Shown here piece by piece: positions 1 to 13,730 of a stretch of DNA of 32,513 nt. The stretch comes from an uncultured Candidatus Saccharibacteria bacterium (GTDB lineage Bacteria; Patescibacteriota; Minisyncoccia; Portnoybacterales; UBA2143): NCBI GenBank assembly GCA_964467815.1, contig CAYXST010000004.1:1-32513 (forward strand), written 5' to 3'. The translations under genes and the position numbers were made by a program. The notes beneath the pieces were generated by a model. That model was not told the origin of the DNA. It saw only the letters and a program-made list of their open reading frames with translations, and ran no database searches. How positions within the stretch are numbered: the first letter of the stretch is position 1; each line of letters starts with the position of its first letter.

Positions 1-96
1 TTTAATAAATTAATTAATCAAAACTGTTGCGTTAAAAGTTAGAAACTAAGTTATTCAATTAAAATAAACGATAACGCAACTTCTACTGATAACCGA

Positions 97-729
97 ATGG
101 TAAAGTTAACTTTAAAGGCAACTAATGCTTCGCAAATGGCTGTTTCTAATGATTCAACTTTTACAGGTTTAAGTTATGAACCCTATGCCACGACCAAAGA
201 CTGGATTTTAAGTGAAAGCGTGGGGCAAAAAACTGTTTATGTTCGCTTTCGAAATTCAAGCGGTGGTACGGTTGGAACGTCAGCATCTATTAATCTGACT
301 ACTTCAGCATTAATTCCTTTAACGCCAAGTAATTCAGAAGGTCAGGTTTTGGGTAAACGAAAATATGCTGAAGGCGCTTTGATTAGGGCTATAGGAGATA
401 TAGATGTCTGGATTGTAAAATATGTTGGAAATAAACAATATAAAAGATTAATTTTAAGTCCATCTGTATTTAATAATTATGGACATCTTAAATGGGAAGA
501 TGTATTGGATATTGATCAAGCTGATGTCAATTCTTTCACAACCTCTGAATTAGTAAGAGCTGTTAATGATAAAAAGGTTTATAAATTATTTCCTGCGGGC
601 GATACCGGAGAAAAAAAATGGATAATGACAGCAGAAGCCTTTAATCGTTTAGAATATGATTGGGATTCGATATATGAAATTAATGAATTTGACGGGAATT
701 CCTATATAACAGCTCAGAACATAGAATAA
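97..729 (+). CDS. hypothetical protein (no catalytic motif recognised; possibly surface-associated)
   Basis: 210-aa ORF. An in-frame stop at 40-42 makes ATG 97 the first start. An intrinsic terminator follows directly. Confidence 0.45.
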   Translation: MVKLTLKATNASQMAVSNDSTFTGLSYEPYATTKDWILSESVGQKTVYVRFRNSSGGTVGTSASINLTTSALIPLTPSNSEGQVLGKRKYAEGALIRAIGDIDVWIVKYVGNKQYKRLILSPSVFNNYGHLKWEDVLDIDQADVNSFTTSELVRAVNDKKVYKLFPAGDTGEKKWIMTAEAFNRLEYDWDSIYEINEFDGNSYITAQNIE

Positions 730-744
730 TTATTTATAAAAAAA

Positions 745-772
745 GCCTGCCTTTACGGCAGGTCTTTTTTAT
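745..772 (+). terminator. rho-independent terminator
   Basis: GCCTGCC-TTTAC-GGCAGGT stem-loop followed by a T-run, just after the stop at 729. Confidence 0.7.
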
Positions 773-786
773 TTTAAAATTAGAGT

Positions 787-1761
787 ATGTATAAAGGTTT
801 TAAGAAATATTTTATTCCTCACGAGAGCAACAACCATAAGCCATATGTCTTAAGATGGGAAGCAGTGTTGGTAATATTAAGTTTTATTTTATTGGTTGAG
901 ATTTATTTTTTAGTTCAGGCCTTTTGGTTTATTCCACAAGGCAATTTTTTTGCTTCAATTGTTCCTATAACTATTGAGAATCTTACTAATAAAAGTCGTC
1001 TGGATAATAATTTAGAATTACTTAAAGTAAATTCTTTACTAGAAAAAGCTGCTCAACTGAAGGCAGAAAATATGGCTACCAAGGGCTATTTTGCTCATAC
1101 TAGTCCTGACGAAGGTTTAACGCCTTGGTATTGGTTGGATAATGTTGGCTATAAATACGTTGTGGCTGGTGAGAATTTAGCAGTTAATTTCGTGGATTCT
1201 CAAGATGCCATTAATGCTTGGATGAATTCACCAATTCACAGGGATAATATTTTAAATAATAACTTTCATGAGATCGGCGTTGGCACAGCCAAGGGAATAT
1301 ATGAGGGTAAGGAAACAACTTTTATCGTTCAGTTTTTCGGTCGCCGGTCAGTAATAACTGCTGAGTCAGCTACTGTAGTAAATGAGGACAAACAGCCAAT
1401 CCCATCTATTGCAGGATCTTCTAACGAATCGTTTACTGAAAATCCGACTATTACTACAGTTAAGGGCGAAGTTAGAAATGTTGTCGCATCTGATAATCCG
1501 AGCCCTACTGAATTAGCCGTTAAAGAAAATCCTACGCTAAGTATAGCTAACCGACTTTTATCAACACCAAGAGCTGTGAGCAATTATCTTTATTTTGTCT
1601 TATTCACTATTTTACTTTTGGCTTTATTACTTAGCATCTTTATTAAAATTAGAATTCAACACAAGGCGCTGATTATTAATGGTGTTATTTTACTTCTTAT
1701 TATTTCTTCAATAATTTGGTTAAATCAATATATTGCTTTAACACAGACGAAGATAATTTGA
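787..1761 (+). CDS. CAP/SCP (YkwD-like) domain protein with N- and C-terminal transmembrane segments
   Basis: CAP-type motifs GYFAHTSPDEG...GENLA...WMNSPIHRDNIL...HEIGVG. Hydrophobic helices lie near residues 25-45 and 265-320. Confidence 0.7.
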   Translation: MYKGFKKYFIPHESNNHKPYVLRWEAVLVILSFILLVEIYFLVQAFWFIPQGNFFASIVPITIENLTNKSRLDNNLELLKVNSLLEKAAQLKAENMATKGYFAHTSPDEGLTPWYWLDNVGYKYVVAGENLAVNFVDSQDAINAWMNSPIHRDNILNNNFHEIGVGTAKGIYEGKETTFIVQFFGRRSVITAESATVVNEDKQPIPSIAGSSNESFTENPTITTVKGEVRNVVASDNPSPTELAVKENPTLSIANRLLSTPRAVSNYLYFVLFTILLLALLLSIFIKIRIQHKALIINGVILLLIISSIIWLNQYIALTQTKII

Positions 1762-1837
1762 GAAAAGAGTTAGAAAATATAATAAGTAATAGGGTAAGGT
1801 AATAATCAATAAATTAAATCTGCCGTTGTTTGAGCAA

Positions 1838-2067
1838 GGGCATGCCCGAAATGTCAAACTAAAGCCGATAATTGCCTAATTTGAATTAAAACTAATCCTG
1901 GAACAGGCAGGGCTTTGCTCCAATCAAAGGTTCGAAAGCTGTCCTGCCAAGCGAGCCAAAAGAAAAGTCCCGATATGATATCGGGACTTTTCTTTTGGCT
2001 CCGAACGGTGAACGAAATCCGAACTTTTTTTAGCGAAAATCCGGATGCTGGATTTTGATGTTCCACC
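1838..2067. ncRNA. candidate structured RNA / repeat element, copy A (class unknown)
   Basis: The 72-nt core 1887-1958 matches 12008-12079 at 69/72 positions. It is flanked by helices that differ in sequence but keep pairing, including a perfect 20-bp hairpin at 1956-1998. A 3' module runs CCGAACGGTGAACGAAATCCGAAC-T7. Confidence 0.45.
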
Positions 2068-2251
2068 TTGCCGCCACTTGCTGACGCTTACCACCTCGCA
2101 AAAAGGTTTCTCTACATTTTTTATTTTGCGCGCGCCCTAATTTTTTTCAATTAAGGAAAAGCAAGCTTTTCTGCTCGGCTCTGCGCTAACGCGCGGGCGG
2201 CGGGCTTCCATGCTCATTTACGGAGCGGTTTTTCTTTGTTAAAATTAAAAT

Positions 2252-3034
2252 ATGCAATTTCTCTCAATTCTTGAACAACCTACAAAAGAAGCGGCAAGGG
2301 TCTTTACAGAAAAAAGAAATCTCATTAATTACCTGCCAGAAAATTATCAACATTCTCAAGAGGATTACCTCATTGCGTTAGATTCTCCTCCAGTTTTCGT
2401 CGTTTCCGACGGCGTTACTTTAGATTTTAAAAAATTAGTTGAAAATAATGTGAAATACCCGAATCCTTCTCCCGCGGGGGAAGTCGCCAAAATATTTTGT
2501 GAATCTGTGGTGAAAAGTGTCCGAAATAAATATGAAATTTTTGACGAAGAAAAAAACAGAGAGGTTTTCAAAGAAGCAAATAATGAAGTTGGGCAATACA
2601 ATCAAAAAATAGGCAAAAGCGACATTTCGGGAAACATTACCGGGTTTTATTCTGCCACGGGAGCATTTGTTGTTATTAAGGAAAACAAAGCATATTGGGT
2701 ATCGATTTGTGATGCCTTTGTCGCCCATTTTGATAAAAAAATGAATATGAAGTTTATTTCATCGGGCCTATGTACTCCATACGCTGTCATAAATGGCGAA
2801 GAAAAAATGGCGGAGCATTTAGAAGGCGGGGTATTGAGTCTTGAAAAAGATGATCGCATTTTTGTCTTTACAGATGGTTTTGAGCACTATGTTAAAAATC
2901 CTGACTTTCTTACACTTTTCAACGAATGGAGCGATAATCTTGAAGAACGCATCGCAGAATTTTCCAAAGAAATGAATATAAGAGATCCAGAAAAATATGG
3001 TCACGAACGCTCCCTTATCGCAATTTTATTTTGA
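2252..3034 (+). CDS. PP2C/SpoIIE-like phosphatase-fold protein (divergent)
   Basis: Asp-containing motifs VFVVSDGVT and RIFVFTDGF, plus a C-terminal HERSLIAILF, spaced as in the PP2C fold. The canonical DGxGG motif is absent. Confidence 0.4.
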   Translation: MQFLSILEQPTKEAARVFTEKRNLINYLPENYQHSQEDYLIALDSPPVFVVSDGVTLDFKKLVENNVKYPNPSPAGEVAKIFCESVVKSVRNKYEIFDEEKNREVFKEANNEVGQYNQKIGKSDISGNITGFYSATGAFVVIKENKAYWVSICDAFVAHFDKKMNMKFISSGLCTPYAVINGEEKMAEHLEGGVLSLEKDDRIFVFTDGFEHYVKNPDFLTLFNEWSDNLEERIAEFSKEMNIRDPEKYGHERSLIAILF

Positions 3035-3774
3035 ATATGAAAATTTTTATAACCGGCGCATCCGGAACAATTGGAAGAGTCCTAATGAAATGCTTATCAG
3101 AAAAGTATGAAGTTGTTGGTATTGATAAAATACCGTCGGATAATGTCGTAACCCTCAATATCGTCGACGAACAAGAAAAACTCCGGAAGCTATTAAAAAG
3201 CGTTGATGTTATCATTCATCTCGCGTGGGATACCAAAGAAGCAGGAACAGCTTTAGAATCGTCTGTGGTGGAAAATAAAACTATGGGAGAGATTATGTAT
3301 GCGCTCTCTTTGGAACAGAAAATCAAAAAATTTATCCTCGCTAGCTCCGTTCACGTATCCCTCGGTCATATTAGTTATAGACATCCTGGGATTGTTGAAG
3401 ATCATAAAGTGTTGCATACAAAAAAGATAACAACTCAAGGGGAGCTTTTTCCACTGGGAATTTATGGCGCTTCAAAAGTATATCTTGAAGCGCTTGGAAA
3501 AGCATATAGCGAAAAAGGGTTGCGGGTTATCTCCGTAAGGTTCGGTAATGTAACTCGTGGTGATAGTTTCGGTGAATATCCTTTCTGGCTGAGTCATCGA
3601 GATTGCTGCAGTTTTATTGATAAATGTATAGAAACAAAAAATCTTCCAGGGTACTCTGTTTTCTTTGCGATTTCGGATAATCCCTGCAACCCTTTTGATT
3701 TATCCGACGCACAGTCACGACTCGGATACGAGTCAAAAGATAAATCGCCATGTCCCGAAGAGAATAATTCTTAA
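3031..3774 (+). CDS. NAD-dependent epimerase/dehydratase (extended SDR family)
   Basis: N-terminal Rossmann motif ITGASGTIG and catalytic YGASK (YxxxK). Overlaps the upstream gene by 4 nt. Confidence 0.75.
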   Translation: MNMKIFITGASGTIGRVLMKCLSEKYEVVGIDKIPSDNVVTLNIVDEQEKLRKLLKSVDVIIHLAWDTKEAGTALESSVVENKTMGEIMYALSLEQKIKKFILASSVHVSLGHISYRHPGIVEDHKVLHTKKITTQGELFPLGIYGASKVYLEALGKAYSEKGLRVISVRFGNVTRGDSFGEYPFWLSHRDCCSFIDKCIETKNLPGYSVFFAISDNPCNPFDLSDAQSRLGYESKDKSPCPEENNS

Positions 3775-3846
3775 AGCAGCCGTCTCGCCGCAAATGAAGC
3801 GAGGACGACGCGGGAACAGGACTCGAACTTTTTCAGATGTTCCATC
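3748..3846. repeat. possible partial/degenerate third copy of the structured element (copy C)
   Basis: CATGTCCCGAAG resembles CATGCCCGAAATG of copy A. A bulged hairpin lies at 3781-3808. GGGAACAGGACTCGAAC-T5-CAGATGTTCCATC resembles the 3' module plus GATGTTCCACC of copy A. The 72-nt core is missing. Confidence 0.25.
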
Positions 3847-3888
3847 GAGTTGGCGTTGTAAGACCGTGTTACTGTAAGATTTTTGGAT

Positions 3889-3920
3889 TTGACAAAGATT
3901 ATAAAGATAGTTATTATAAT
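3889..3920 (+). promoter_or_regulatory. putative sigma70-type promoter of the rSAM cassette
   Basis: TTGACA at 3889-3894. TATTAT follows after 17 nt, or TATAAT after 20 nt. Confidence 0.3.
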
Positions 3921-3987
3921 AGAAGCAAAAATTAGTTTATTCTTTTAAAATAAAATATATTGATTGAGAAAATATAGGAGGATTGAA

Positions 3988-5361
3988 ATGAAAAAAGAGA
4001 GTAAATTCAAATTATCTTCAGATGTTCTTTTGAGGAGGAACGAGAAAGAAATCGCATATAGAACAATAGACGGGCAAGCGGCAATAATACATCTGAAGAA
4101 AAATACCTTTAATATCCTTAACGGGTTAGCTACGCGGATATGGGAATTGATAGACGGTCAAGTCTCGGCAGAGAAAATTACAGAAAGAATCTACCAAGAA
4201 TTTGATGCGGAGCGGTCGGTATTAAATCAAGATTGTTTGGATTTTGTTCAAGAAATGTTGGGAAGGGATTTGCTAAAAACTTCTTTCCCTGTAAAAGGCG
4301 TTTCTGAACAAAGACAACTACCCGAAACAGAAGGCGAGTTATTTGATGCTCTAAGGGAAAAATCAATCGCCAAACAAATTCCCCTTATTGTGCATTTTGA
4401 TTTAACCTATCAGTGCAACCTTAATTGTGTTCATTGCTATATAGTAAACAAGAATCGTTCTGTTCTCGGAGTTGAAGAGGTAAAAAATATCCTTGATCAG
4501 TTAGCGGAGGCAGGCGCGCTTTATCTAATATTGAGCGGCGGTGAAGTGCTGACGAGAAAAGATTTTATTGAAATTGCTCGATATGCCAGAAACCTCCATT
4601 TCGCTTTAAGGATACTAACCAACGGAACATTGATAGATAAAATGATGGCTGATGAAATCGCTTCTTTGAATCCTGAAATGGTGGCTATAAGTATCTATAG
4701 CACAAAGCCCCAAGTTCATGATAAGATAACAAAGGTATCGGGTTCTTTTCAAAAATCAATTTCCGCAGCGGAGACGTTAAGGAACAGGGATACACGATTG
4801 AAGATTTCTACGGTAATAATGAAAGATAATATGGGTGACTATCGCGATGTTTATGAATTTAGCAGACAATTAAAAGCGGCTTTTCAAGCGGATTACAGGA
4901 TTACCCCGAAGACTGATGGTAATAAAATTCCTTTGGCGGTTCACATTGACGAAGAATATCTTCCTAAGTTGTTAGCCGATCCTATTTTTACCGAAAAAAG
5001 CGAGCCAGAACCACAAGAGATTTATTCGGGAATCTTTAACACAATTCCTTGCGGAGCGGGTCATATGTCTTGCTATATCACTCCTTATGGCGATGTCTAT
5101 CCTTGTGTTCAGTTGCCGATAAATTGTGGCAATTTGAGAAAAACCAAATTCATCGAGATTTGGAAGAATTCCCCCAAGTTGTCGGAATTTCGTTCCATTA
5201 TAATTTCAGATTTAACTAGCTGTTCCCAATGCGAGTTCTTTAAATACTGTCGGATCTGCGTAGGGCTAAACTATGTTGAGGAAGGAAGCATGTTTATTCC
5301 ATCTAAAAGGGCCTGTCAGGAGGCCAGAATAATGAAAGAATTAGGCAGAGAAAGGAGGTGA
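3988..5361 (+). CDS. radical SAM/SPASM peptide maturase with N-terminal PqqD-like (RRE) domain, PqqE/MftC-like
   Basis: The N-terminal ~90 aa look PqqD-like (IDGQAAIIHLKKNTFNILNGLATRIWELIDG). CNLNCVHC is the CxxxCxxC motif. The SPASM Cys cluster is CGAGHMSCYITPYGDVYPC...CSQCEFFKYCRIC. ATG 3988 is preferred over TTG 3964 because AGGAGG lies 7 nt upstream. Confidence 0.8.
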   Translation: MKKESKFKLSSDVLLRRNEKEIAYRTIDGQAAIIHLKKNTFNILNGLATRIWELIDGQVSAEKITERIYQEFDAERSVLNQDCLDFVQEMLGRDLLKTSFPVKGVSEQRQLPETEGELFDALREKSIAKQIPLIVHFDLTYQCNLNCVHCYIVNKNRSVLGVEEVKNILDQLAEAGALYLILSGGEVLTRKDFIEIARYARNLHFALRILTNGTLIDKMMADEIASLNPEMVAISIYSTKPQVHDKITKVSGSFQKSISAAETLRNRDTRLKISTVIMKDNMGDYRDVYEFSRQLKAAFQADYRITPKTDGNKIPLAVHIDEEYLPKLLADPIFTEKSEPEPQEIYSGIFNTIPCGAGHMSCYITPYGDVYPCVQLPINCGNLRKTKFIEIWKNSPKLSEFRSIIISDLTSCSQCEFFKYCRICVGLNYVEEGSMFIPSKRACQEARIMKELGRERR

Positions 5362-5362
5362 A

Positions 5363-5494
5363 ATGATGAAAGCTAAGAACCTTAAAAAGTCCTATCAGAG
5401 GCCTGAGGTGAAGTCCGAAAAGGAGAGGCCTGAGAAGGACAACGGGCGTATTTATACCCCTGGGGCAGAATGCGGCCCTGCGCCTGGTCCTTAG
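5363..5494 (+). CDS. candidate RiPP precursor peptide, 43 aa (MMKAKNLKKSYQRPEVKSEKERPEKDNGRIYTPGAECGPAPGP)
   Basis: Hand-translated; too short for the ORF track. It starts 2 nt after the rSAM stop, with AGGAGGTG spanning that stop. A Lys/Glu-rich leader precedes a Gly/Pro-rich C-terminus with one Cys. A strong terminator follows. Confidence 0.55.
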   Translation: MMKAKNLKKSYQRPEVKSEKERPEKDNGRIYTPGAECGPAPGP

Positions 5495-5510
5495 ATAGGA
5501 CTAAATCAAG

Positions 5511-5558
5511 GTGGCGAGAATCAAAAAAGATAATCAACATTTTTCTCGCCACTTTTTT
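5511..5558 (+). terminator. rho-independent terminator
   Basis: GGTGGCGAGAA ... TTCTCGCCAC stem followed by T6. Confidence 0.65.
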
Positions 5559-5559
5559 A

Positions 5560-5588
5560 TTTACACACCTACTCTTTTGTTATATAAT
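5560..5588 (+). promoter_or_regulatory. sigma70-type promoter (TTTACA-N17-TATAAT)
   Basis: TTTACA at 5560-5565 and TATAAT at 5583-5588. The ATG at 5597 is only 8 nt past the -10 element and has no SD, so the transcript is near-leaderless. Confidence 0.5.
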
Positions 5589-5596
5589 CGCTTTAT

Positions 5597-6355
5597 ATGG
5601 CAAAGAAAAATGATAATTGGTGGAAAGATACATTTAATGAAATATATTTCTCATTTTGGGATCCTTCAGATCCGAAATCACAGAGTTGGACCAGAAAGGA
5701 ACTTAAATTGATTGATAGTCTAAATCTTAAAGAAAACGCAAAAGTATTGGATATACCTTGTGGTCAGGGAAGGCATAGCGTAGAACTTGCTAAAAAAGGA
5801 TTCCAGGTTACAGGCGTTGATTATTCGTCAATTGCTTTGAAAACTGCTAAAAAGTGGGCTAGGGGGAATAAGGTTTCGCCAGTTTTTATAAAACAAGATA
5901 TGCGTTTTCTCAAAATAAAAGAAAGATTTGATGCAATTGTGATGTTGGGTAATTCTTTTGGGTATTTTCCCAATATTGAGAACAAAAAAGTGATTATGGG
6001 TATATCAAAATTATTAAAAACTGGCGGTTTTTTTATCGTTCATCAGCTTAATCCCATAGAAATATTGAGACAATTTGGCAACAAAAGTAGTTTTGAGATT
6101 CCTGGCGGATACGTAAAAATGGAGGATATTTTTTTTGACCCATTTAATTTTGTTAAGGGGTCGCGTTGGGTAGTCGTTCGCGGCAAAAATAAAGAAATTT
6201 TAAATGTGAGACTTCGTATTTATACTTTTCCTGAAATCTCTTCTCTATTTTCTTCTCATAAATTAAATATTGTTAAAGTTTATGGTTCTTTTGATATGAA
6301 GTCATACCAATTTAATAGTCCGTCAATGATCACTATCGCGAAAAGAATAAGATAA
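5597..6355 (+). CDS. class I SAM-dependent methyltransferase
   Basis: Motif I VLDIPCGQGRHS, followed by VTGVDYS and IVMLGNSFGY. Confidence 0.75.
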   Translation: MAKKNDNWWKDTFNEIYFSFWDPSDPKSQSWTRKELKLIDSLNLKENAKVLDIPCGQGRHSVELAKKGFQVTGVDYSSIALKTAKKWARGNKVSPVFIKQDMRFLKIKERFDAIVMLGNSFGYFPNIENKKVIMGISKLLKTGGFFIVHQLNPIEILRQFGNKSSFEIPGGYVKMEDIFFDPFNFVKGSRWVVVRGKNKEILNVRLRIYTFPEISSLFSSHKLNIVKVYGSFDMKSYQFNSPSMITIAKRIR

Positions 6356-6386
6356 ATACTAATATTTAACTAGTAGTCCAAGCCAG

Positions 6387-6415
6387 AGCCCAGTTTCTAA
6401 AACTGGGCTTTTTTC
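6387..6415 (+). terminator. rho-independent terminator
   Basis: AGCCCAGTTT-CTAA-AACTGGGCT followed by T6. Confidence 0.75.
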
Positions 6416-6465
6416 TTTGATTTTTGTATGATAAGATAAAATTAGGAATAACATATATTAAAAAT

Positions 6466-7323
6466 ATGCGACAGAAAATCAATTCAACATTAATTTGTCC
6501 AAAATGCGGAGGTTTATTAGATTTAAAAATAGAGAAAAAATCCGGAGACAGAATAAATAAAGGAGATTTAAGCTGTGATAAATGCAATGCGAATTTTAAA
6601 ATAATAGATGATATTGTTCGTTTTAAGCCAATTGCAGAAAGGGGCTTGGATAAGAAAATAAAAAGAGTTCGGGAAATGTTTTTAGATCAGGAATTGAATA
6701 AAAAATGGGCAAAGCATTTTAGCAAAGAAGAGTTCGGCGTCTTAAAAGAAGAATGGAGATGGATGATTAATAAGCTTAATCTAAAAAACAGCCAGATTCA
6801 TTTAGATTGGGCAACTGGCACGGGGCGGTTTCTAAGAAATATACTTAATTTAGTTAAGGGAGAAATTATTGCCATAGAGAGCGACTATGCTACATGTGTG
6901 GCTCTTAGAGATTTTTTAAAAAGGATTAAAAAATATTCAAAAACAACGATTATTTGCGGCGATGCCCGAAATATGCCTTTGGTTGATAATTCGGTTGATA
7001 GTGTAAGCACATGGTCTGGTCTCGATGAGCCAAAGATTAGCAAAGCATTAGATGAATCTAAAAGAGTTCTGAAAAAAGATAGACCATTGGTTGTTAGTGG
7101 TTTATTTTTTGAAGATAATTCAAAAAGTTTGAAGATAGCACTCCGGGAAAAAATTGAATTCGCCAAAAAAGATAAAACTCAACAATATTTTAAGAAATTA
7201 GGATTTAAGGATATTGATTACAAAATATTCTTTGAAGGGAAATGGGCGAGTGGCAAAGATTTTCTGCCGAAAAAAGGAGATTATTATGCTTCATATGCTG
7301 TGGCAGGTAGGAAATCCGATTAG
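6466..7323 (+). CDS. Trm112-like zinc-ribbon fused to class I methyltransferase domain
   Basis: CPKCGG...CDKCNANFKIIDDIVRF is a Trm112/UPF0434-like ribbon. Methyltransferase motifs LDWATGTGRF and CGDARNMPLVDNSVD follow. ATG 6466 is preferred because the TTG at 6424 abuts the upstream terminator. Confidence 0.65.
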   Translation: MRQKINSTLICPKCGGLLDLKIEKKSGDRINKGDLSCDKCNANFKIIDDIVRFKPIAERGLDKKIKRVREMFLDQELNKKWAKHFSKEEFGVLKEEWRWMINKLNLKNSQIHLDWATGTGRFLRNILNLVKGEIIAIESDYATCVALRDFLKRIKKYSKTTIICGDARNMPLVDNSVDSVSTWSGLDEPKISKALDESKRVLKKDRPLVVSGLFFEDNSKSLKIALREKIEFAKKDKTQQYFKKLGFKDIDYKIFFEGKWASGKDFLPKKGDYYASYAVAGRKSD

Positions 7324-7347
7324 AATTTAGTTAAAATTAACAAATAT

Positions 7348-7977
7348 ATGATAAAAAAAGAACAAAAAATCATAAAAAATAAACTCCGAGAATTTTTAGA
7401 AAAAGGGCGGCCAGTAATGGGGGAGTATTATGATATCTTAGAGTCAAGTCATAATACAGAAGATATCCGCATTCTTATTGAACGCGACCCAGATTTCTAT
7501 GATTCGTATTTATATGTGGCCAATGATTTGCGTAAGTCAGGACACGAATCAGAAGCGCGAGAATTAGAAGACAAAGCATTTAAGCGAGCTCGTGCCCGTA
7601 TTGAAGATAAACAAGGCAATTGGCCCGATAGAATGCCGTGGGGCTGGCTTGAAAATAGACATATTATTCGGGCTCTTGGAGTTGGCGCAGATAATCTTTG
7701 GAAAGACGACAAGACAGATGAAGCGCTTGATATTTACCGCAAGTTGTTCCGTTCAAATTTTGACGATAATATTGGCGCTCGATACGCAATTATTGCCCTT
7801 CGCATGGGGCTTAGCTATGATGAGTATATGAAGCAGGTTTGGCCTCAGTCGTCGGTGCCTGCCGAGCGTATTAATAAATGGTTTAAGAAAAACGCGCCAA
7901 AATTTCCAGAAGAATTAAAGGAATGGAAAAAGCATTGTAAAGATGAACTTGACTTAAGTGAAAAAGATTTGAGTTAA
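7348..7977 (+). CDS. hypothetical helical-repeat (TPR-like) protein
   Basis: 209-aa ORF with no catalytic motif. Tightly spaced with the neighbouring genes, so probably in an operon. Confidence 0.4.
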   Translation: MIKKEQKIIKNKLREFLEKGRPVMGEYYDILESSHNTEDIRILIERDPDFYDSYLYVANDLRKSGHESEARELEDKAFKRARARIEDKQGNWPDRMPWGWLENRHIIRALGVGADNLWKDDKTDEALDIYRKLFRSNFDDNIGARYAIIALRMGLSYDEYMKQVWPQSSVPAERINKWFKKNAPKFPEELKEWKKHCKDELDLSEKDLS

Positions 7978-7988
7978 ATCTATGATTT

Positions 7989-8426
7989 ATGGACCATATA
8001 GCCATAATGAGAAAATCTTGGGGGTTGTTGCCTAAGATTTTAACTGGAGAAAAGACAATTGAATCTCGCTGGTATAAAAACAAATGTTCTCCTTGGGGTA
8101 AGATTAAACGAGGAGATGTTGTTTATTTTAAGAATTCGGGCGAGCCAGTAACCATCAAAGCAGAAGTTTCCAAAATTATCCAATATTTGGATTTAACGTC
8201 AGCAAAAGTAAGATGGACTTTGCAGAAATACGGCACAAAAGATGGTCTTGGAATAGATGAGATAGATAAATATTATCAGAGGTTTAAAGACAGAAAATAC
8301 TGCTTGTTGGTTTTTCTGAAAAATCCGCAGAAAATTAAACCATTTGAAATAGATAAAACCGGCTATGGCAATATGGCGGCTTGGATTGCTATTGATGATG
8401 TAAATAAATTAAGAAAAAGAATTTAA
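7989..8426 (+). CDS. ASCH (PUA-like) domain protein
   Basis: KILTGEKTIESRWYKN...GDVVYF pattern typical of ASCH domains. Confidence 0.5.
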   Translation: MDHIAIMRKSWGLLPKILTGEKTIESRWYKNKCSPWGKIKRGDVVYFKNSGEPVTIKAEVSKIIQYLDLTSAKVRWTLQKYGTKDGLGIDEIDKYYQRFKDRKYCLLVFLKNPQKIKPFEIDKTGYGNMAAWIAIDDVNKLRKRI

Positions 8427-8514
8427 TCATGGCTTATCTATATACTCTTAAATTAGATTTGCCACAAAAAGATTTTGACTTGTTTTATCTCGTAGGTATT
8501 GATAATCTTAACTT

Positions 8515-9399
8515 ATGCGTTTACCAATTATAATTTCTCGTTTTTCTAATTTATTATTTTTTATTCAAAAGACAAGCCAGAGCCGTTTGGCTAGTTTTGA
8601 TTTACAAAAGTACTTAGATGAGAATCTTGATATATCTTTTTATGGAGGAAGTGAGAGCGAGATTTGGAAACAAATTAGCAAATCAATTGGAAAGCGAGAC
8701 GCGGAGCAATTTAAAAAGGCGATTATTCCAATAAAGTCTGTTTTTGCTCCACATTGGGAAAAAGCGTCCAAGAATCTAAGCCTATGGGAGAAATATTTTC
8801 AAGATAACAGCGAATTATTTGAACAAATTATTCTTGATATTAAAGTATTAAGCAATGTAAAAGACTTCTTGGTTTCTAAAATTCCAATATATCTTGTTTC
8901 TGATTCTCAGAGCGATGGTAAAGATATTAATGCTTGGTTTTCATGGACGCCAAAACAGAGTTTTGTGGTTGTTGAGATTCCAATTGGTCTTAAAGTAGCA
9001 GATAATCTTTTCCAAATAGGTATTTTAGCTCATGAGTATTTTCACCTTGTCTTAAAGAAAAACAAAAAGCTCGTTTTACAAATTAATCAAATAGCTGAAG
9101 AAAATAATGAGTTACTTGAAAAAATATCAAAAAGAGATGTTTCTAATAAGATGTTTTTTGAAGAATTATTGATCAGCTCTTTCGTTCCAGAGGGTTATTT
9201 AAGCGAGAAGTATTTTGGTTTTAAAGTCGCTACTGATATTTATAACCCTAAAGATTTATTAGATTGGCGAAAACTGGTTGCTTCTGAAATGCGTCGATTA
9301 GCAGAAAAGTATATCAACAATTCTCAGCAAATTGATAAAAAATATCTTGGTCAGCTAATAAAGGTTATTAAGCAGAATATAAAACAAAAGCCCTCTTAG
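8515..9399 (+). CDS. hypothetical protein with HExxH motif (possible zinc metallopeptidase)
   Basis: GILAHEYFHLV contains HExxH. No other family assignment is possible by eye. Confidence 0.4.
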   Translation: MRLPIIISRFSNLLFFIQKTSQSRLASFDLQKYLDENLDISFYGGSESEIWKQISKSIGKRDAEQFKKAIIPIKSVFAPHWEKASKNLSLWEKYFQDNSELFEQIILDIKVLSNVKDFLVSKIPIYLVSDSQSDGKDINAWFSWTPKQSFVVVEIPIGLKVADNLFQIGILAHEYFHLVLKKNKKLVLQINQIAEENNELLEKISKRDVSNKMFFEELLISSFVPEGYLSEKYFGFKVATDIYNPKDLLDWRKLVASEMRRLAEKYINNSQQIDKKYLGQLIKVIKQNIKQKPS

Positions 9400-9418
9400 A
9401 GATTCGTCTCTAAGAGGG
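9391..9418. terminator. bidirectional stem-loop between convergent genes
   Basis: CCCTCTTAGAG-ATTCGT-CTCTAAGAGGG, a perfect 11-bp stem overlapping the stop of 8515..9399. It lies 10 nt from the stop of the minus-strand peptide ORF. Confidence 0.55.
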
Positions 9419-9428
9419 ATTGAAGTGT

Positions 9429-9584
9429 TTATTTCCTGTTTGCCCAGTGACCTTTGTCCCACGGGCCCTTATCCCAGGCTTTGCCCCAAGGTTTGTTTTT
9501 CTTTCCCATGGCTTGGATTGTTGCTTCTTTTTTGGCCTGAAGAAGAACTTTTGGGACAGCCCTTGAAGCGGCGGGATTTGACAT
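9429..9584 (-). CDS. candidate RiPP precursor peptide, 51 aa (MSNPAASRAVPKVLLQAKKEATIQAMGKKNKPWGKAWDKGPWDKGHWANRK)
   Basis: Hand-translated from the minus strand. AGGAGGTG lies 6 nt upstream of the ATG at 9584, and the ORF starts 39 nt downstream of the rSAM stop. The C-terminal core has the repeats WGK/WDK/WDK/WAN. Confidence 0.65.
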   Translation of the reverse strand: MSNPAASRAVPKVLLQAKKEATIQAMGKKNKPWGKAWDKGPWDKGHWANRK

Positions 9585-9623
9585 GGTCTTCACCTCCTTT
9601 TGTTTGGAATTTGCCGCCTTTAA

Positions 9624-10721
9624 TTATGCAAGACCATACGATTTTATCTTGCCTGCAATATGCCCAAAGTACCTTTTGAGGTTTTCACAAACTTCATCGA
9701 TTGGTTTGACGGAATCGAGTTGCACGTAGCAATCCTTGGCACATCCTCCTTTACATATAAAACCCCAATCGCATGTTTGGCAGTTTGCCCTTCTTTTTCT
9801 CAGTGTTTCTTGGAAACTTTTTAGGTGTGGATTAGATCTGACCAAGGCCGAATCATCTATTACGTTGCCAAAGCTTAGGGCATTTGTTTTAGGGAAAGAA
9901 TCGCAGCCGTAAATTGAACCATCGTGGTAAACAGTGACGAATTGATCGCATTCTCCCATATAGATGCATTCGCGCTTGTTGCCGCCGAGAATTAAGCTGA
10001 CAACGCTTTGAATGTCTCGGATTTCAACTTCTGGGTCGTCCAGCTCCAGCCAGAGATCAAAGATGGCAATCATGAAATCGGCGTATTGTCTTGGTGAAAT
10101 GGTGAGTGAAGATACATCGTTGCAATGACCGATATCTCTCACTCTGGCAAATTTCAACTTTTTTATGTCTTTCGTGATAAAAAAGTTGAAAATCTCTTTC
10201 GGGAATTGATGATTGATAGCGCTGACGCCGCAAATAATTCCGTTGAATATCCCAGCTCGCCTCAGCAAATCAATACCTTTCATAACATTGTCGTACGACC
10301 CTCTTTTATCAGGATAGTATCGGACCTGGTCATGAAAATCTTTAGGGCCATCAAGGCTTACGCCGACGAAAAAGTTGTGTTCAAGAAAGAATTCTGTCCA
10401 TTCGGGCGTAACTAGAGTAGCATTAGTTTGGACTGAATTCGTTATTCTTTTGCCTTTTTGTTCCCATGGTCGTTGATATTCTACAGCTTTACGGTAAAAA
10501 TCTATTCCAGCGAGCAAAGGTTCGCCTCCATGCCAGATAAACTCAATGTCGTCTTGATCGCGACAGAAAAAATCAGTCATTGCTTTCAAGGTTTTTGGAA
10601 GCATGCGATCTTGCCTAGTCGATTTTTCATGCCCGGAAACGTAGCAGTAGGAACAGGATAGATTGCATAAGCCATTGACTGGTTTGATAATCGGAGTGGA
10701 AATTGCTTGATAGGTTGCCAT
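9624..10721 (-). CDS. radical SAM/SPASM enzyme, anaerobic sulfatase-maturase-like (peptide-modifying candidate)
   Basis: CNLSCSYC (CxxxCxxC) near the N-terminus. C-terminal Cys clusters are CIYMGEC...YGCDSF...CQTCDWGFICKGGCAKDC. AGGAGGTG lies upstream of the ATG. Confidence 0.8.
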   Translation of the reverse strand: MATYQAISTPIIKPVNGLCNLSCSYCYVSGHEKSTRQDRMLPKTLKAMTDFFCRDQDDIEFIWHGGEPLLAGIDFYRKAVEYQRPWEQKGKRITNSVQTNATLVTPEWTEFFLEHNFFVGVSLDGPKDFHDQVRYYPDKRGSYDNVMKGIDLLRRAGIFNGIICGVSAINHQFPKEIFNFFITKDIKKLKFARVRDIGHCNDVSSLTISPRQYADFMIAIFDLWLELDDPEVEIRDIQSVVSLILGGNKRECIYMGECDQFVTVYHDGSIYGCDSFPKTNALSFGNVIDDSALVRSNPHLKSFQETLRKRRANCQTCDWGFICKGGCAKDCYVQLDSVKPIDEVCENLKRYFGHIAGKIKSYGLA

Positions 10722-10839
10722 CGCACACCTCCTTTCTTTTATGGTTGTAAAAGTGCATTAAAATCTTATTCGTATCTTGTCTAATAGAGTATATATAATT
10801 ATGTATTTTGTCAAGTTTTTGCTAAAATAGCACGAAATT

Positions 10840-11607: not shown

Positions 11608-11910
11608 ATGAATAAAAATAAAAAACAACTAAAAGCAATTGATTTTCAGGAATATTTAGCTGAGCAATTAAAAAACCCTGAATTTAAAAAGCATTATGAT
11701 GAATATGGCCGGCAATTAGAAATTGCTTACCAAATTTTGCAGTTACGGAAAAAGAGAAAGATGTCTCAGGCAGAATTGGCCAAAAAGATTGGCACTAAGC
11801 AAAGCAATATTGCTCGGATGGAAACAGGCCAGCAGAATTTTACAATTGATATGCTTCAAAAAATTGCTTCTGTATTAGGTAAGAACCTTAAAGTTGAATT
11901 TACAAAATAG
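11608..11910 (+). CDS. XRE-family helix-turn-helix transcriptional regulator (HigA/antitoxin-like architecture)
   Basis: LRKKRKMSQAELAKKIGTKQSNIARMETGQQNFTIDMLQKIA is a canonical XRE HTH. Confidence 0.75.
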   Translation: MNKNKKQLKAIDFQEYLAEQLKNPEFKKHYDEYGRQLEIAYQILQLRKKRKMSQAELAKKIGTKQSNIARMETGQQNFTIDMLQKIASVLGKNLKVEFTK

Positions 11911-13039: not shown

Positions 13040-13157
13040 ATTATTCACCAATCTGTCTTTGAAGATTAATTTGACATAATCGTCAGAAATGGTATCTTGT
13101 TTTTAGGCTCTTGAACAATTAAATATTTAATTGATTGGAATAACAAAGGAGGAAAAA

Positions 13158-13730
13158 ATGACAGTCAAGACAAAGATACAGGAGGCGATGGAGACGCCTC
13201 AAAGCAAGAAAGAGGTCGAAGCCGGCATTAGGCGAATAGGCGACTTATTATCCGAAATAAGTCAGATGGAAAACAATTTGAGTAAAACTGTTCAGCGGAT
13301 GACCGCGGCTGCCTCAAAAATGGCGAGTCATCGGGAACAGGAAATCGTCAAAATACAGCTGACCATTGAGGCATTTATGGCCAGTCATCGCCAAGAACTG
13401 ACCCAAGGCGGCAAAACCAAATCGATTAAGTTGCCTGCTGGCAGGACCGGCTGGCGTCTTTCTTCTTCTTCGGTGGAAATAATGGGCGAAGAAGAAGAAA
13501 TGGCAAAACAGCTCGAGAAGATGGGATTAAATGGACTAGTCAGGATTAAAAGGACCGTTGATAAAGAGGCGGTTAAAAAGAATCCTGGATTGGTCCAAGA
13601 GGTTAAAGGTCTCATTGTCAGAAAAGGCAAAGAGATTTTCTGGATAGAGCCGGCCAGGATTGGTTTGAAGACGGAGATTGCCGAAGACGGCCGACTGGTC
13701 AGACGCAAGTCAGGGGCAAAAAAAGATTAA
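13158..13730 (+). CDS. gam: phage Mu Gam-like host-nuclease inhibitor / DNA-end-binding protein
   Basis: An N-terminal coiled coil is followed by ELTQGGKTKSIKLPAGRTGWRLSSSSVEI...LGLNGLVRIKRTVDKEAVKK, matching the Mu Gam family pattern. AAGGAGG precedes ATG 13158. Confidence 0.6.
   Translation: MTVKTKIQEAMETPQSKKEVEAGIRRIGDLLSEISQMENNLSKTVQRMTAAASKMASHREQEIVKIQLTIEAFMASHRQELTQGGKTKSIKLPAGRTGWRLSSSSVEIMGEEEEMAKQLEKMGLNGLVRIKRTVDKEAVKKNPGLVQEVKGLIVRKGKEIFWIEPARIGLKTEIAEDGRLVRRKSGAKKD

Follow-up and report, generated by a model that had tools for sequence, protein, structure and literature searches.

Directly behind a gene for a radical SAM (rSAM)/SPASM enzyme of the anSME-like kind, the stretch of DNA analysed here (32,513 nucleotides in all, hereafter the window) holds a 51-codon open reading frame with four W-x-[KN] triplets. 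Is this a gene, and if so, what is made of its product? The first-pass annotation had proposed a minimal pair of enzyme and peptide yielding cyclophanes, and the sequence features on which it drew (open reading frames, motifs, ribosome-binding site, spacing and peptide) were all present on re-reading. The answer that we favour, with moderate confidence, is a self-contained three-gene peptide-maturation cassette giving a two-ring cyclophane peptide.

The precursor peptide gene occupies 9429..9584 on the minus strand (51 aa plus stop, with the stop codon at 9431..9429), and translation from the ATG at 9584 gives exactly MSNPAASRAVPKVLLQAKKEATIQAMGKKNKPWGKAWDKGPWDKGHWANRK. This ATG lies 39 nt past the stop of the rSAM gene, and a ribosome-binding site, AGGAGGTG (9591..9598, minus strand), is found 6 nt 5' of it. 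The peptide stop is followed by a strong, intrinsic-terminator-like hairpin (9391..9418; 12-bp stem with 6 G-C pairs, loop of 4) with a T-tract (9381..9418 for the whole element, minus strand), which ends the rSAM-peptide operon and overlaps the final codons of a convergent gene. An antisense 84-aa ORF is present at 9425..9679; it stays open over at least 70 aa in only one of nine related loci. With Trp at a frequency of 1.23% in the window's long ORFs, the chance of four or more Trp in 20 aa is about 9e-5, and this peptide alone among the window's 192 small ORFs has three or more W-x-[KN] triplets. A promoter scan returned 4 sites, with 4.1 expected from shuffled sequence; TTGACA-N15-TATACT can be read by eye 5' of the rSAM gene, and we do not claim it as a promoter.

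The decisive evidence that the peptide gene is real, beyond chance, is its conservation in homologues. The enzyme gene is followed by a peptide with the core motif in 33 fetched loci (the pairing loci being 9 close genome loci, L015-L017, 18 metagenome loci and L098-L101). A homologous peptide lies 3' of the enzyme in all nine close genome loci, and the downstream peptide is conserved in every metagenome locus with at least 44% enzyme identity and DNA extending past the enzyme gene. The short ORF and its Trp triplets thus recur beside homologous rSAM genes, and the proposed pairing of peptide and anSME-like enzyme is borne out by the 33 loci and by 81 peptide clusters. The peptide had also been described as unannotated, which holds for NCBI, from which it (P0241) is not listed, whereas its neighbour P0121 is; JGI, ENA and Logan data already contain a gene call for the identical peptide (28 contigs). 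A Pfam and NCBIfam search with the peptide returned no family match. Among 10 distinct loci, nine of the ten non-Trp core codons vary synonymously, and the tenth, Lys -8 (AAA/AAG), shows a synonymous change plus one replacement; read at this codon level, the peptide is under purifying selection for its amino acids. We also considered an RNA element in place of a peptide and ruled it out, because the synonymous codon pattern excludes conservation at the nucleotide level; an Rfam scan of the window found tRNAs only.

Near its N-terminus the peptide carries a leader motif, P11-K-V-L-L-Q-A-K-K-E-A21 (9522..9554, minus strand), which we presume to be the recognition sequence and which is well kept (P 81/81, L 81/81, L 80/81, A 80/81 and K 78/81 clusters). 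At the extreme C-terminus lies the core, G40-P-W42-D-K44-G-H46-W47-A-N49-R-K51 (9432..9467, minus strand). The conserved element is this one C-terminal dodecapeptide, GPWDKGHWANRK, with two triplets, W-D-K and W-A-N. Five of its positions, W at -10, D at -9, W at -5, N at -3 and R at -2, are invariant in 81/81 clusters, Gly45 and His46 are kept in 80/81, and the chain ends directly after NR[KQR] in 80/81 peptides. In the form W-D-[KDNE] and W-[ASV]-N the triplets are invariant across the 81 clusters; locus L008, outside this set, has W-A-R. The i+2 residues are limited to K/R/D/N/E in the first triplet and N/R in the second, all with a C-beta methylene. Even where enzyme identity falls to 45-47% the core is still GPWDKGHWANRK.

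The enzyme gene (9624..10721, minus strand, 365 aa) has its own copy of the ribosome-binding site AGGAGGTG (10726..10733, minus strand) 4 nt 5' of its ATG. The radical SAM cluster motif C19-x3-C23-x2-C26 (CNLSCSYC) is encoded at 10644..10667 (minus strand); among 30 diverse homologues C23 and C26 never change, and conservation of C19 is 90% or higher. The SPASM region (9687..9968, minus strand) comprises C252, C258, G268-x4-C273-D274, C314-x2-C317-x5-C323-x3-C327, D330, C331 and C345, with CQTCDWGFICKGGCAKDC spanning C314-C331. Its residues follow the pattern CX9-15GX4C, CX2CX5CX3C, C (C258...C273, C314...C327, C331, C345), and in the alignment to anSMEcpe its cysteines fall on those of the auxiliary clusters, the CD pair at C276/D277 among them. 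They are conserved across the family. Judged by these motifs the enzyme is a full rSAM/SPASM protein, and the cysteines on which the first-pass annotation had relied (C19/C23/C26 and C314-C331) are confirmed. Pfam Radical_SAM (PF04055) matched with E = 6.7e-19 and 69 bits, the cut-off being 29.5 bits; the Pfam SPASM model was not reported at E <= 0.01. The Pfam scan gave no PqqD match for this enzyme, which has no N-terminal RRE/PqqD domain and begins its cluster motif at residue 19. The window's other rSAM gene (3964..5361) does carry a PqqD match.

The enzyme scores under every curated NCBIfam family cut-off. The full-length matches are anSME (TIGR03942, 280.3 bits, cut-off 349.45) and DynA (NF041298, 263.7 bits, cut-off 450), so that the score is slightly closer to anSME than to DynA. 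The best peptide maturase models are DynA (264 bits), DarW (180) and GrrM/OscB (179), and the score of DynA in six other family members is 226-250 bits. Among the curated cyclophane-synthase models missed (score/cut-off) are GrrM/OscB (179/310), YhhB (153/445), FxsB (140/370), AmcB (130/425) and XyeB (96/450), and DarE (NF038005) reaches 143.6 of the 650 bits of its cut-off. The nearest solved structure is anSMEcpe (4K37, 166 bits across residues 11-355), and the second-ranked is the triceptide synthase domain ChlB.

D330, which adjoins the cluster cysteines, covaries with peptide residue -8: the site is Asp or Glu where -8 is K or R, and Asn or Ser where -8 is D or N, with one exception (P0040/P0300) in a count that leaves out P0070/L101, whose enzyme C-terminus has no SPASM motif and looks frameshifted. 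The Asn/Ser-type enzymes form one clade, and the covariation of D330 with K(-8) thus amounts to a single evolutionary event. We take it as only a hint of contact between enzyme and peptide; as proof of contact it was rejected on account of the one clade and the one exception.

A third gene belongs to the unit. The cassette had been thought minimal, with no dedicated protease; this did not hold, since a convergent gene (8515..9399, plus strand) encoding a 294-aa protein of an uncharacterised HExxH family is co-conserved wherever a locus extends far enough to show it. It is present and convergent in L001-L009, L015 and the metagenome loci. Pfam and NCBIfam searches assigned it to no described family, and its 135 homologues are all unnamed or 'hypothetical'. 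The putative metal site, H173-E174-x-x-H177 (9031..9045, plus strand), is invariant in 34 close and 39 remote relatives (16-34% identity), and the segment E216-E217-x3-S-S-x2-P-E-G227 (9160..9195, plus strand) offers a candidate third metal ligand, with E217, P225 and G227 invariant even in the remote relatives. An AF2 model (pLDDT 90.8) places strands at 125-156, the HExxH helix at 166-181 and then a helix at 211-221 with E216/E217.

HExxH proteins of cyclophane clusters can be Fe/alpha-KG hydroxylases (PMC12636437), and this assignment (IPR026337, ChlH/BpmH/PflC type) found no sequence support for the partner, which may still have such a function: the alpha-KG HExxH family gave no match at E <= 10 in the 34 close members or at E <= 1 in the 39 mostly remote ones, the search having used NCBIfam release 20, which we assume to contain the corresponding TIGRFAM model. 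Foldseek of the partner model against the PDB gave as its best hit a putative Zn metallopeptidase (4l7a) at E = 0.39, and a profile search of PDB sequences gave spurious matches only. The 39 remote relatives show only weak zincin matches, with Pfam SprT-like in nine (best E 0.0017), DUF5700 and M48, and also BSP and HtpX; no peptidase match was significant by sequence or structure. CPR groundwater bacteria are mostly anaerobes, which would disfavour an O2-dependent partner enzyme. For the partner, we consider removal of the leader, by zinc peptidase activity, the most likely role; a role in tailoring the rings instead is less likely.

Enzyme clusters number more than 100 and peptide clusters 81, the partner family has 227 representatives, and the three-gene unit is conserved in many Patescibacteria (Parcubacteria-type CPR bacteria). 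In sister clades, this enzyme and its partner occur with other peptides built of aromatic-x-X repeats, which are W-x-K/R/Q and Y-x-D (WNKG..YPWNKK, WGKG..YPWRKK, WDRQWDRSWPQSWERG and YHDGYGDAGYGDYSDA) and which have leader-like motifs such as VPRVLQK (L041) and VLLAAAKDA (L038). They indicate a broader, unmapped superfamily and, because they carry aromatic-x-X repeats, support triceptide-like cyclophane chemistry.

The data show that the peptide gene is real, that it is paired with the enzyme and co-conserved with the partner, that the motifs are kept and that the enzyme stands apart from sulfatase maturases; how the cassette might work, including the type, sites and number of the cross-links and the role of the partner, we infer as follows. 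The rSAM gene and the 51-aa precursor would be co-transcribed on the minus strand as far as the hairpin terminator, and the convergent gene would supply the metal-binding HExxH protein. The leader PKVLLQAKKEA is probably recognised directly by the enzyme, which has no RRE domain. With a single SAM cluster and a complete SPASM domain of two clusters, the enzyme most likely removes a C-beta hydrogen from the residue that closes each triplet, K44 in W-D-K and N49 in W-A-N, and the radical would then couple to the indole two residues upstream. The product would be two three-residue cyclophanes, each with a loss of 2 Da, like those found in triceptides and in darobactin's ring B. The upstream W-x-K units, of which the window has two, may add optional rings, and the leader is most likely removed by the HExxH partner as a zinc peptidase. 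Several observations count against parts of this scheme. The two-ring model leaves the invariant Asp43 and His46 unexplained, and the enzyme reaches no curated cyclophane-synthase cut-off. A core that hardly varies is not usual in antibiotic-type RiPPs, no exporter is conserved nearby, and the partner has no significant peptidase match.

The constancy of the core also admits a reading in terms of function, which we put forward tentatively: WDKGHWANRK may give rise to one fixed cross-linked molecule common to Parcubacteria-type CPR bacteria, with a conserved physiological or host-interaction role in place of that of an arms-race antibiotic. Its makers would be an unrecognised anSME-like clade of cyclophane synthases together with HExxH enzymes of a new family, and it might act in signalling, in the manner of a cofactor, or by binding a conserved target in the host. 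If true, no conserved modified peptide would have been linked to the biology of these reduced episymbionts before.

Somewhat unlikely, in our estimate, is that the same cassette performs radical chemistry other than a Trp-to-C-beta(i+2) bond: a dynobactin-like His N to C-beta link through His46, a darobactin-type ether, a Trp link to another side-chain carbon, or one larger ring joining both Trp triplets. DynA is the top peptide maturase model, and dynobactin joins Trp-Asn C-C and His-Tyr N-C links (PMC10288494); His46 and Gly45, although kept in nearly all clusters, are not required by a plain two-triplet model; WprB links W-P-R motifs from Trp C5 to Arg C-gamma (PMC11851443); and His-based triceptide rings are known from HtkB and HaaB. 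However, the DynA score lies far under its cut-off (264/450), and the core resembles WNSNVHSYRF in composition only. Moreover, the sister-clade cores have no His yet keep W-x-K and W-x-K/R triplets, which argues that the triplets are the common substrate element.

We hold it improbable that a conserved small molecule or cofactor-like product is made from the peptide by the logic of PQQ or mycofactocin, with the rSAM/SPASM enzyme cross-linking the invariant C-terminal core, the peptidase excising the product, and the product filling a housekeeping or host-interaction role and not that of a variable antibiotic. Such a product would suit a core that stays essentially the same even where enzyme identity has dropped to 45%, and a putative metallopeptidase that is always present. 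It would also suit the surroundings: neither an exporter nor an immunity gene is conserved near the cassette, and in L015 the cassette stands among housekeeping genes. Against it, the variable W-x-K copy number and the sister-clade repeats look more like multi-ring RiPPs, no dependent oxidoreductase is co-conserved, and darobactin-type antibiotics likewise have rather constant cores. PqqE and MftC are not among the top NCBIfam models, and the enzyme is close to neither.

The proposal with which the analysis began, a two-gene cassette forming four cyclophane rings, one per W-x-K/N triplet, with processing by host proteases, likewise has a low probability. The window's peptide does have four triplets, four Trp occur in 31/81 clusters, and darobactin is freed by host proteases (PMC9055067). 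The upstream units W33-G-K-A-W37-D-K (9468..9488, minus strand), however, are optional and vary in copy number: at the aligned positions the third Trp is found in 60/81 and the fourth in 33/81 clusters, and elsewhere R, L, Y, H or another residue stands in its place. Peptides have 2 to 6 Trp; 18/81 clusters have two only and no upstream W-x-K unit, and the shortest peptides end '...GPWDKGHWANRK' with no repeat-like sequence ahead of the core. A fourfold core is thus not what is conserved, as the last two triplets alone are invariant, and the co-conservation extends to a third gene, whose HExxH is invariant.

The sulfatase question bears on the enzyme itself. All seven family members tested miss the anSME cut-off, the six homologues scoring 257-296 bits. 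We searched for the PROSITE-type sulfatase signature (C/S-x-P/A-x-R) in flanks of 1.5-5 kb, and in the entire 32.5-kb contig for the window; it occurs in 0/33 core-peptide loci and in six loci whose enzymes share 30-36% identity. In an NJ tree (without support values) the enzymes form a clade apart from the sulfatase-linked maturases; clustering with maturases that adjoin sulfatases, which would have undone the first-pass annotation, was thus not found. GPWDKGHWANRK, moreover, has neither Cys nor Ser, the target residues for formylglycine. An ordinary anaerobic sulfatase maturase beside a small ORF that is unrelated or has no function is therefore a highly improbable reading, even though anSME tops the NCBIfam and PDB matches and the anSME catalytic Asp beside a cluster Cys is retained (C273-D274), given the sub-cut-off scores, the lack of the signature in the window and the other 32 core-motif loci, the distinct clade, and a peptide that is always adjacent and under purifying selection.

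For the favoured three-gene cassette, the literature searched gave no prior description, in line with the earlier remark that no characterised CPR example was known. 'WDKGHW' occurs in no paper that we found, we found no characterised modified peptide from Patescibacteria, and surveys of BGCs have recorded few biosynthetic clusters there, or none; a link of Patescibacteria, Parcubacteria or CPR bacteria to rSAM cyclophane peptides was likewise absent from a coverage that is mainly open-access, so that a prior mention is possible. The cassette is compact and widely distributed, and its substrate is clearly defined and small enough for direct synthesis and assay. If the chemistry holds, it would add a new clade between sulfatase maturases and the darobactin/dynobactin enzymes and give a new HExxH family a function, as leader peptidase or tailoring enzyme. 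A near-invariant peptide across a phylum-level group would then suggest a conserved target, which would bear on the interaction of episymbiont and host.

Among known systems, what defines triceptides is a link from an aromatic residue to a C-beta within an aromatic-X-X motif (PMC11499958), and we compared the cassette with their 3-CyFE rSAM/SPASM enzymes XyeB, GrrM/OscB, FxsB, YhhB, HtkB and ChlB. There as here, an rSAM/SPASM enzyme adjoins a short precursor with conserved, sometimes repeated aromatic-X-X motifs, the i+2 residues K/R/N/D match known motifs (HTK, HNR, YDR), and an HExxH protein accompanies the cluster, as with FxsB and ChlBH. Unlike triceptide synthases, the enzyme lies under all curated cyclophane-synthase cut-offs and closer to anSME, and the precursor and partner families are undescribed. 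Nor can the partner be related to the alpha-KG HExxH hydroxylases by the searches made, and the cassette further differs in its nearly invariant core and its CPR host. With anSMEcpe (4K37) the enzyme shares the three cluster motifs and the C-D pair, the lack of an RRE domain and, presumably, abstraction of a C-beta hydrogen; it differs in having no sulfatase neighbour, a core without Cys or Ser and a separate clade.

Darobactin contains a bond from Trp C6 to Lys C-beta on W-S-K (PMC10125368), and AnSME is the nearest sequence relative of DarE-type cyclophane synthases (PMC10288494). Dynobactin and darobactin, too, have short C-terminal cores that begin with Trp, theirs with Trp to Lys/Asn C-beta bonds; W-D-K resembles the W-S-K of darobactin ring B, and both the 356-position DynA model and the 365-aa enzyme are without an N-terminal extension. 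The enzyme is nevertheless far under the 450- and 650-bit cut-offs and the core sequence is unrelated: WNSNVHSYRF and WDKGHWANRK agree only in their length of 10 residues, in starting with Trp and in having a penultimate Arg. The hosts of those systems are Gammaproteobacteria; the cassette here has no DarBCD-type transporter and has a dedicated HExxH partner where darobactin relies on host proteases. StrB/SuiB, WgkB and WprB form Lys-Trp or Arg-Trp C-C cross-links on short conserved motifs, and the window's first triplet happens to be WGK, as in WGK-type RaS-RiPPs. StrB/SuiB-type enzymes carry an N-terminal RRE/PqqD domain; the present enzyme has no PqqD match. It is of a different rSAM lineage, and the PDB search did not turn up SuiB at E <= 1e-5. 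In ChlBH and FxsB, finally, an rSAM enzyme is fused to an alpha-KG HExxH beta-hydroxylase, whereas the partner here is a separate convergent gene with no PDB structural match and with weak matches that are all to zinc proteases. The combination of a cyclophane synthase, here a probable one, with an HExxH protein is common to both, and ChlH hydroxylates Asp and His in a preformed cyclophane, residues that the core here also has, in its invariant Asp (W-D-K) and its His.

The window's minus strand carries a 365-aa radical SAM ORF (10721..9624) whose N-terminal part holds CNLSCSYC and whose C-terminus is rich in Cys. An ATG at 9584, 39 nt past its stop, opens a precursor peptide ORF of 51 codons encoding MSNPAASRAVPKVLLQAKKEATIQAMGKKNKPWGKAWDKGPWDKGHWANRK. 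The element AGGAGGTG lies 6 nt ahead of this ATG, and a hairpin with a T-tract (9418..9391, minus strand; 12-bp stem with 6 G-C pairs) lies 3' of the peptide stop. On re-reading, all sequence details of the first-pass annotation were correct; the antisense 84-aa ORF that it named exists in the window, yet is open in one of nine related loci. Trp accounts for 1.23% of the residues in the window's long ORFs, the probability of four Trp in 20 residues is approximately 9e-5, and the precursor peptide alone among the window's 192 small ORFs has at least three W-x-[KN] triplets. An Rfam scan of the window found tRNAs alone. Convergent to the two genes lies an ORF of 294 aa (8515..9399) with an HExxH motif, here called the partner. 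The terminator hairpin (9391..9418) covers its last three codons, so that the two transcription units abut directly.

Scanning a genome collection with the enzyme, we found nine close relatives (56-85% identity), nearly all in Patescibacteria MAGs. The proposal that a short ORF is conserved beside homologous radical SAM genes was borne out: it lies directly downstream in 9/9 of these relatives, with the same leader and C-terminus. The partner is the only flanking gene common to all nine genome loci and also occurs in L015, a more distant relative locus, and in metagenome loci; the minimal two-gene cassette initially described thus has to be extended by a third gene. Together these data establish that enzyme and precursor are co-transcribed and that the HExxH partner is conserved along with them; the three very probably form a precursor/maturase/partner cassette of the RiPP type.

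A protein search with the peptide yielded 81 cluster representatives. One of them is identical to the window peptide and occurs on 28 contigs, showing that other gene callers do call it, and a metagenome scan added 18 further loci carrying the core motif. We anchored the 81 peptides at the C-terminus and counted residues back from position -1. W-10, D-9, W-5, N-3, and R-2 are present in 81/81 each, G-7 and H-6 in 80/81 each, P-11 in 79/81, G-12 and A-4 in 78/81 each, K-1 in 74/81, and K-8 in 68/81, with D, N, or E in the remainder. The peptide ends immediately after NR[KQR] in 80/81, and the leader motif P-K-V-L-L-Q-A-K-K-E-A is nearly as constant as the core. The non-Trp core codons of ten distinct loci differ synonymously at nine of ten positions, and the tenth, Lys -8 (AAA/AAG), also shows one replacement; selection thus acts on the amino-acid sequence rather than on DNA or RNA.

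The fourfold W-x-K/N core claimed earlier held for its last two triplets, which are invariant, but not for the others: 60/81 clusters have the third Trp (-15) and 9 more have Tyr there, and the fourth Trp (-19) occurs in 33/81, with R, L, and H among the replacements at these positions. The clusters have two (18), three (29), four (31), five (2), or six (1) Trp, and the shortest peptides end in '...GGGPWDKGHWANRK', '...IPGPWDKGHWANRK', and '...VAGPWDKGHWANRK'. Because the upstream Trp vary while two triplets are constant, the invariant unit is one dodecapeptide, GPWDKGHWANRK, comprising W-D-K and W-A-N. It is unchanged in L015 and L017 even though enzyme identity there falls to 45-47%. Upstream of it, the (P)W-D-K-(A/G) units resemble duplicates of the first triplet that vary in copy number.

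For the ring chemistry itself, we infer, with the balance tipping somewhat in its favor, two three-residue cyclophanes at W42-D43-K44 and W47-A48-N49. The enzyme would bind the precursor leader and take the C-beta hydrogen from K44 and N49, and each radical would join the indole two residues upstream to close a three-residue cyclophane; upstream units could give optional extra rings, and the partner would afterwards remove the leader. Radical chemistry of another kind, via other carbons or via His46, the near-constant residue at -6, is unlikely but the best of the alternatives. A conserved cofactor-like product, another way to account for a near-constant core, appears improbable. Similarly doubtful is the literal reading of four rings made by two genes: the window peptide has the four triplets, whereas the upstream Trp vary among relatives and the partner is a third gene.

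The enzyme has the radical SAM cysteines C19, C23, and C26 and a full SPASM pattern (C258...G268-x4-C273, C314-x2-C317-x5-C323-x3-C327, then C331 and C345). Its closest solved structure is the anaerobic sulfatase maturase anSMEcpe (166 bits over residues 11-355, with all cluster cysteines and the C-D pair aligned), and the second closest is the radical SAM domain of the triceptide synthase ChlB. Against NCBIfam models it scored below every cut-off, also for the best-scoring ones: anSME (TIGR03942) 280 bits (cut-off 349), DynA 264 (450), DarW 180 (650), and GrrM/OscB 179 (310); six other family members behaved likewise. No RRE/PqqD domain was detected in the enzyme by Pfam scan. DarE-type cyclophane synthases are nearest to AnSME in sequence but have a different active site (PMC10288494). 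A PROSITE-type sulfatase signature occurs in 0/33 core-peptide loci, the window included, and in six loci with enzymes 30-36% identical. In a neighbor-joining tree of 66 enzymes, computed without bootstrap values, the peptide-linked enzymes all fall into one clade and the sulfatase-linked ones elsewhere; the sole unlabelled enzyme in the peptide-linked clade, L035, is on a contig too short for context. The enzyme clade is related to cyclophane-forming SPASM enzymes and separate from sulfatase maturases, as had been anticipated. That the enzyme is a true sulfatase maturase is highly improbable given these loci, its separate clade, and a conserved core without Cys or Ser to oxidise.

Two further kinds of locus were observed. 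The L101 enzyme (1501..2700; P0070, 399 aa, on 12 contigs) is without CX2CX5CX3C and has an unrelated C-terminal tail overlapping the peptide ORF; it is probably an assembly frameshift or a decaying copy. Behind anSME-like enzymes at 28-33% identity lies an ORF of 55-75 aa (L010 4106..4333, L011 4728..4895, L012 5107..5274, L014 4060..4242) whose N-terminus, M..MA.ELR...PPANVM, is conserved and whose C-terminus bears a metal-binding motif of the SEC-C type, CPCGSG[RK]KFKKC; this ORF may be a gene in its own right or a C-terminal extension put out of frame.

The partner has 135 close homologues, every one unnamed or 'hypothetical', and an exhaustive profile search of 1.84 billion proteins returned no more than 227 representatives. 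H173-E174-x-x-H177, E217, P225, and G227 are invariant even in relatives at 16-34% identity. In its confident AF2 model (pLDDT 90.8), three strands lead into the HExxH helix and then a helix with E216/E217, a predicted topology that is the minimal zincin layout. The partner had no significant structure or sequence match in the PDB and none among Pfam and NCBIfam models; its remote relatives matched, weakly, zinc-protease families only (SprT-like in 9/39; also DUF5700, BSP, M48, DUF2268, and HtpX). When fused to cyclophane synthases, HExxH proteins can instead be Fe/alpha-KG hydroxylases of ring Asp and His (PMC12636437), and in the core here one Asp and one His are invariant. No relation of the partner to that family was detectable, although the partner may still have such a function. 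One partner homologue, P0198, is labelled 'Candidatus Pacearchaeota archaeon', and a 2.6-kb contig with the full cassette (L002, JAHJDF010000114.1) 'Gammaproteobacteria bacterium'. As all other relatives are Patescibacteria, these labels are probably binning errors, not transfers.

Elsewhere on the contig, a second radical SAM enzyme (465 aa, 3964..5361, plus strand) has PqqD/RRE, Radical_SAM, and SPASM domains, and its top NCBIfam scores (AhbD 158 bits, mycofactocin maturase 143) are far below cut-off. A 43-aa ORF, MMKAKNLKKSYQRPEVKSEKERPEKDNGRIYTPGAECGPAPGP, starts 2 nt after it (5363..5494, plus strand), and the flanking genes encode a PP2C (2252..3034), an epimerase (3031..3774), and two SAM methyltransferases (5597..6355, 6424..7323). 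Enzyme and ORF may be a second peptide-maturation cassette. Genes for a phage Mu Gam-like protein (13131..13730; Pfam E = 1e-26) and a Cro/C1-type HTH protein (11608..11910), both on the plus strand, may be a mobile-element remnant a few kb from the cassette. In L015 (GCA_964618955.1, CAZUBO010000005.1; genes at 65..9386, 30% GC), TGA serves as a sense codon: MurJ, LepA, DivIC, ThrRS, a Pyr_redox gene, and the HExxH partner together have 18 TGA in frame versus 2 TGG. The three TGA codons of its partner gene align with the invariant W81, W91, and W141, suggesting that TGA encodes Trp and not Gly; its radical SAM and peptide genes use TGG only (6 TGG, 0 TGA).

Enzymes at 32-44% identity that retain the partner gene have candidate precursors upstream: L038 (2425..2757, '...VLLAAAKDASGNIPVSWNKGPGDPYPWNKK', with WNKG..YPWNKK), L041 (1752..1895, '...VPRVLQKISESKRGEGPSLWGKGSGGGYPWRKK', with WGKG..YPWRKK), L052 (264..482, '...NWDRQWDRSWPQSWERG', with WDRQWDRSWPQSWERG, and a second copy at 2666..2875 with WNQ/WPN/WGQ units), and L058 (2767..2937, '...YHDGYGDAGYGDYSDA'). 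L045, whose enzyme is 37% identical and for which no partner was detected, has a downstream 'DWPDWDNDWDNSWDNS...' peptide (4162..4365). L038 and L041, the nearest sisters in the tree, share with the main family W-x-K-G, a spacer, and W-x-X-[KR]-K-COOH. Main and sister precursors have in common an aromatic residue with K, R, Q, N, or D two positions after it, the motif that defines triceptide substrates (PMC11499958). Together, the sister clades look like a broader, unmapped superfamily.

In the enzyme, the cluster cysteines C327 and C331 flank D330. Residue 330 is Asp in 26/26 fetched loci with K/R at peptide position -8 and Asn in both with Asp at -8. Among putative enzyme-peptide pairs, inferred from contigs of matching length, and further look-ups, Asn/Ser330 goes with D/N at -8 in 6/6 cases; Asp/Glu330 goes with K in 13/14 inferred pairs, plus L100 (Glu with Lys), and the single exception retains Asp330 with Glu at -8. 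As the Asn-type enzymes form a single clade, the covariation goes back to a single evolutionary event and does no more than hint at a contact. In HtkB, a triceptide synthase, an Asp is reported to have a role in Lys specificity (PMC11499958), a parallel to the pairing of D330 with Lys -8.

Searches of a literature set with few subscription-journal papers turned up no article with the core sequence and none linking Patescibacteria, Parcubacteria, or CPR to radical SAM cyclophane peptides; an earlier mention may exist in a large-scale mining supplement. Surveys of biosynthetic gene clusters report few or none in Patescibacteria. Radical SAM/SPASM-modified aromatic-x-X peptides are already known as a kind of system; the novelty lies in the enzyme clade, the precursor family with its near-invariant core, the HExxH partner family, and the host group.
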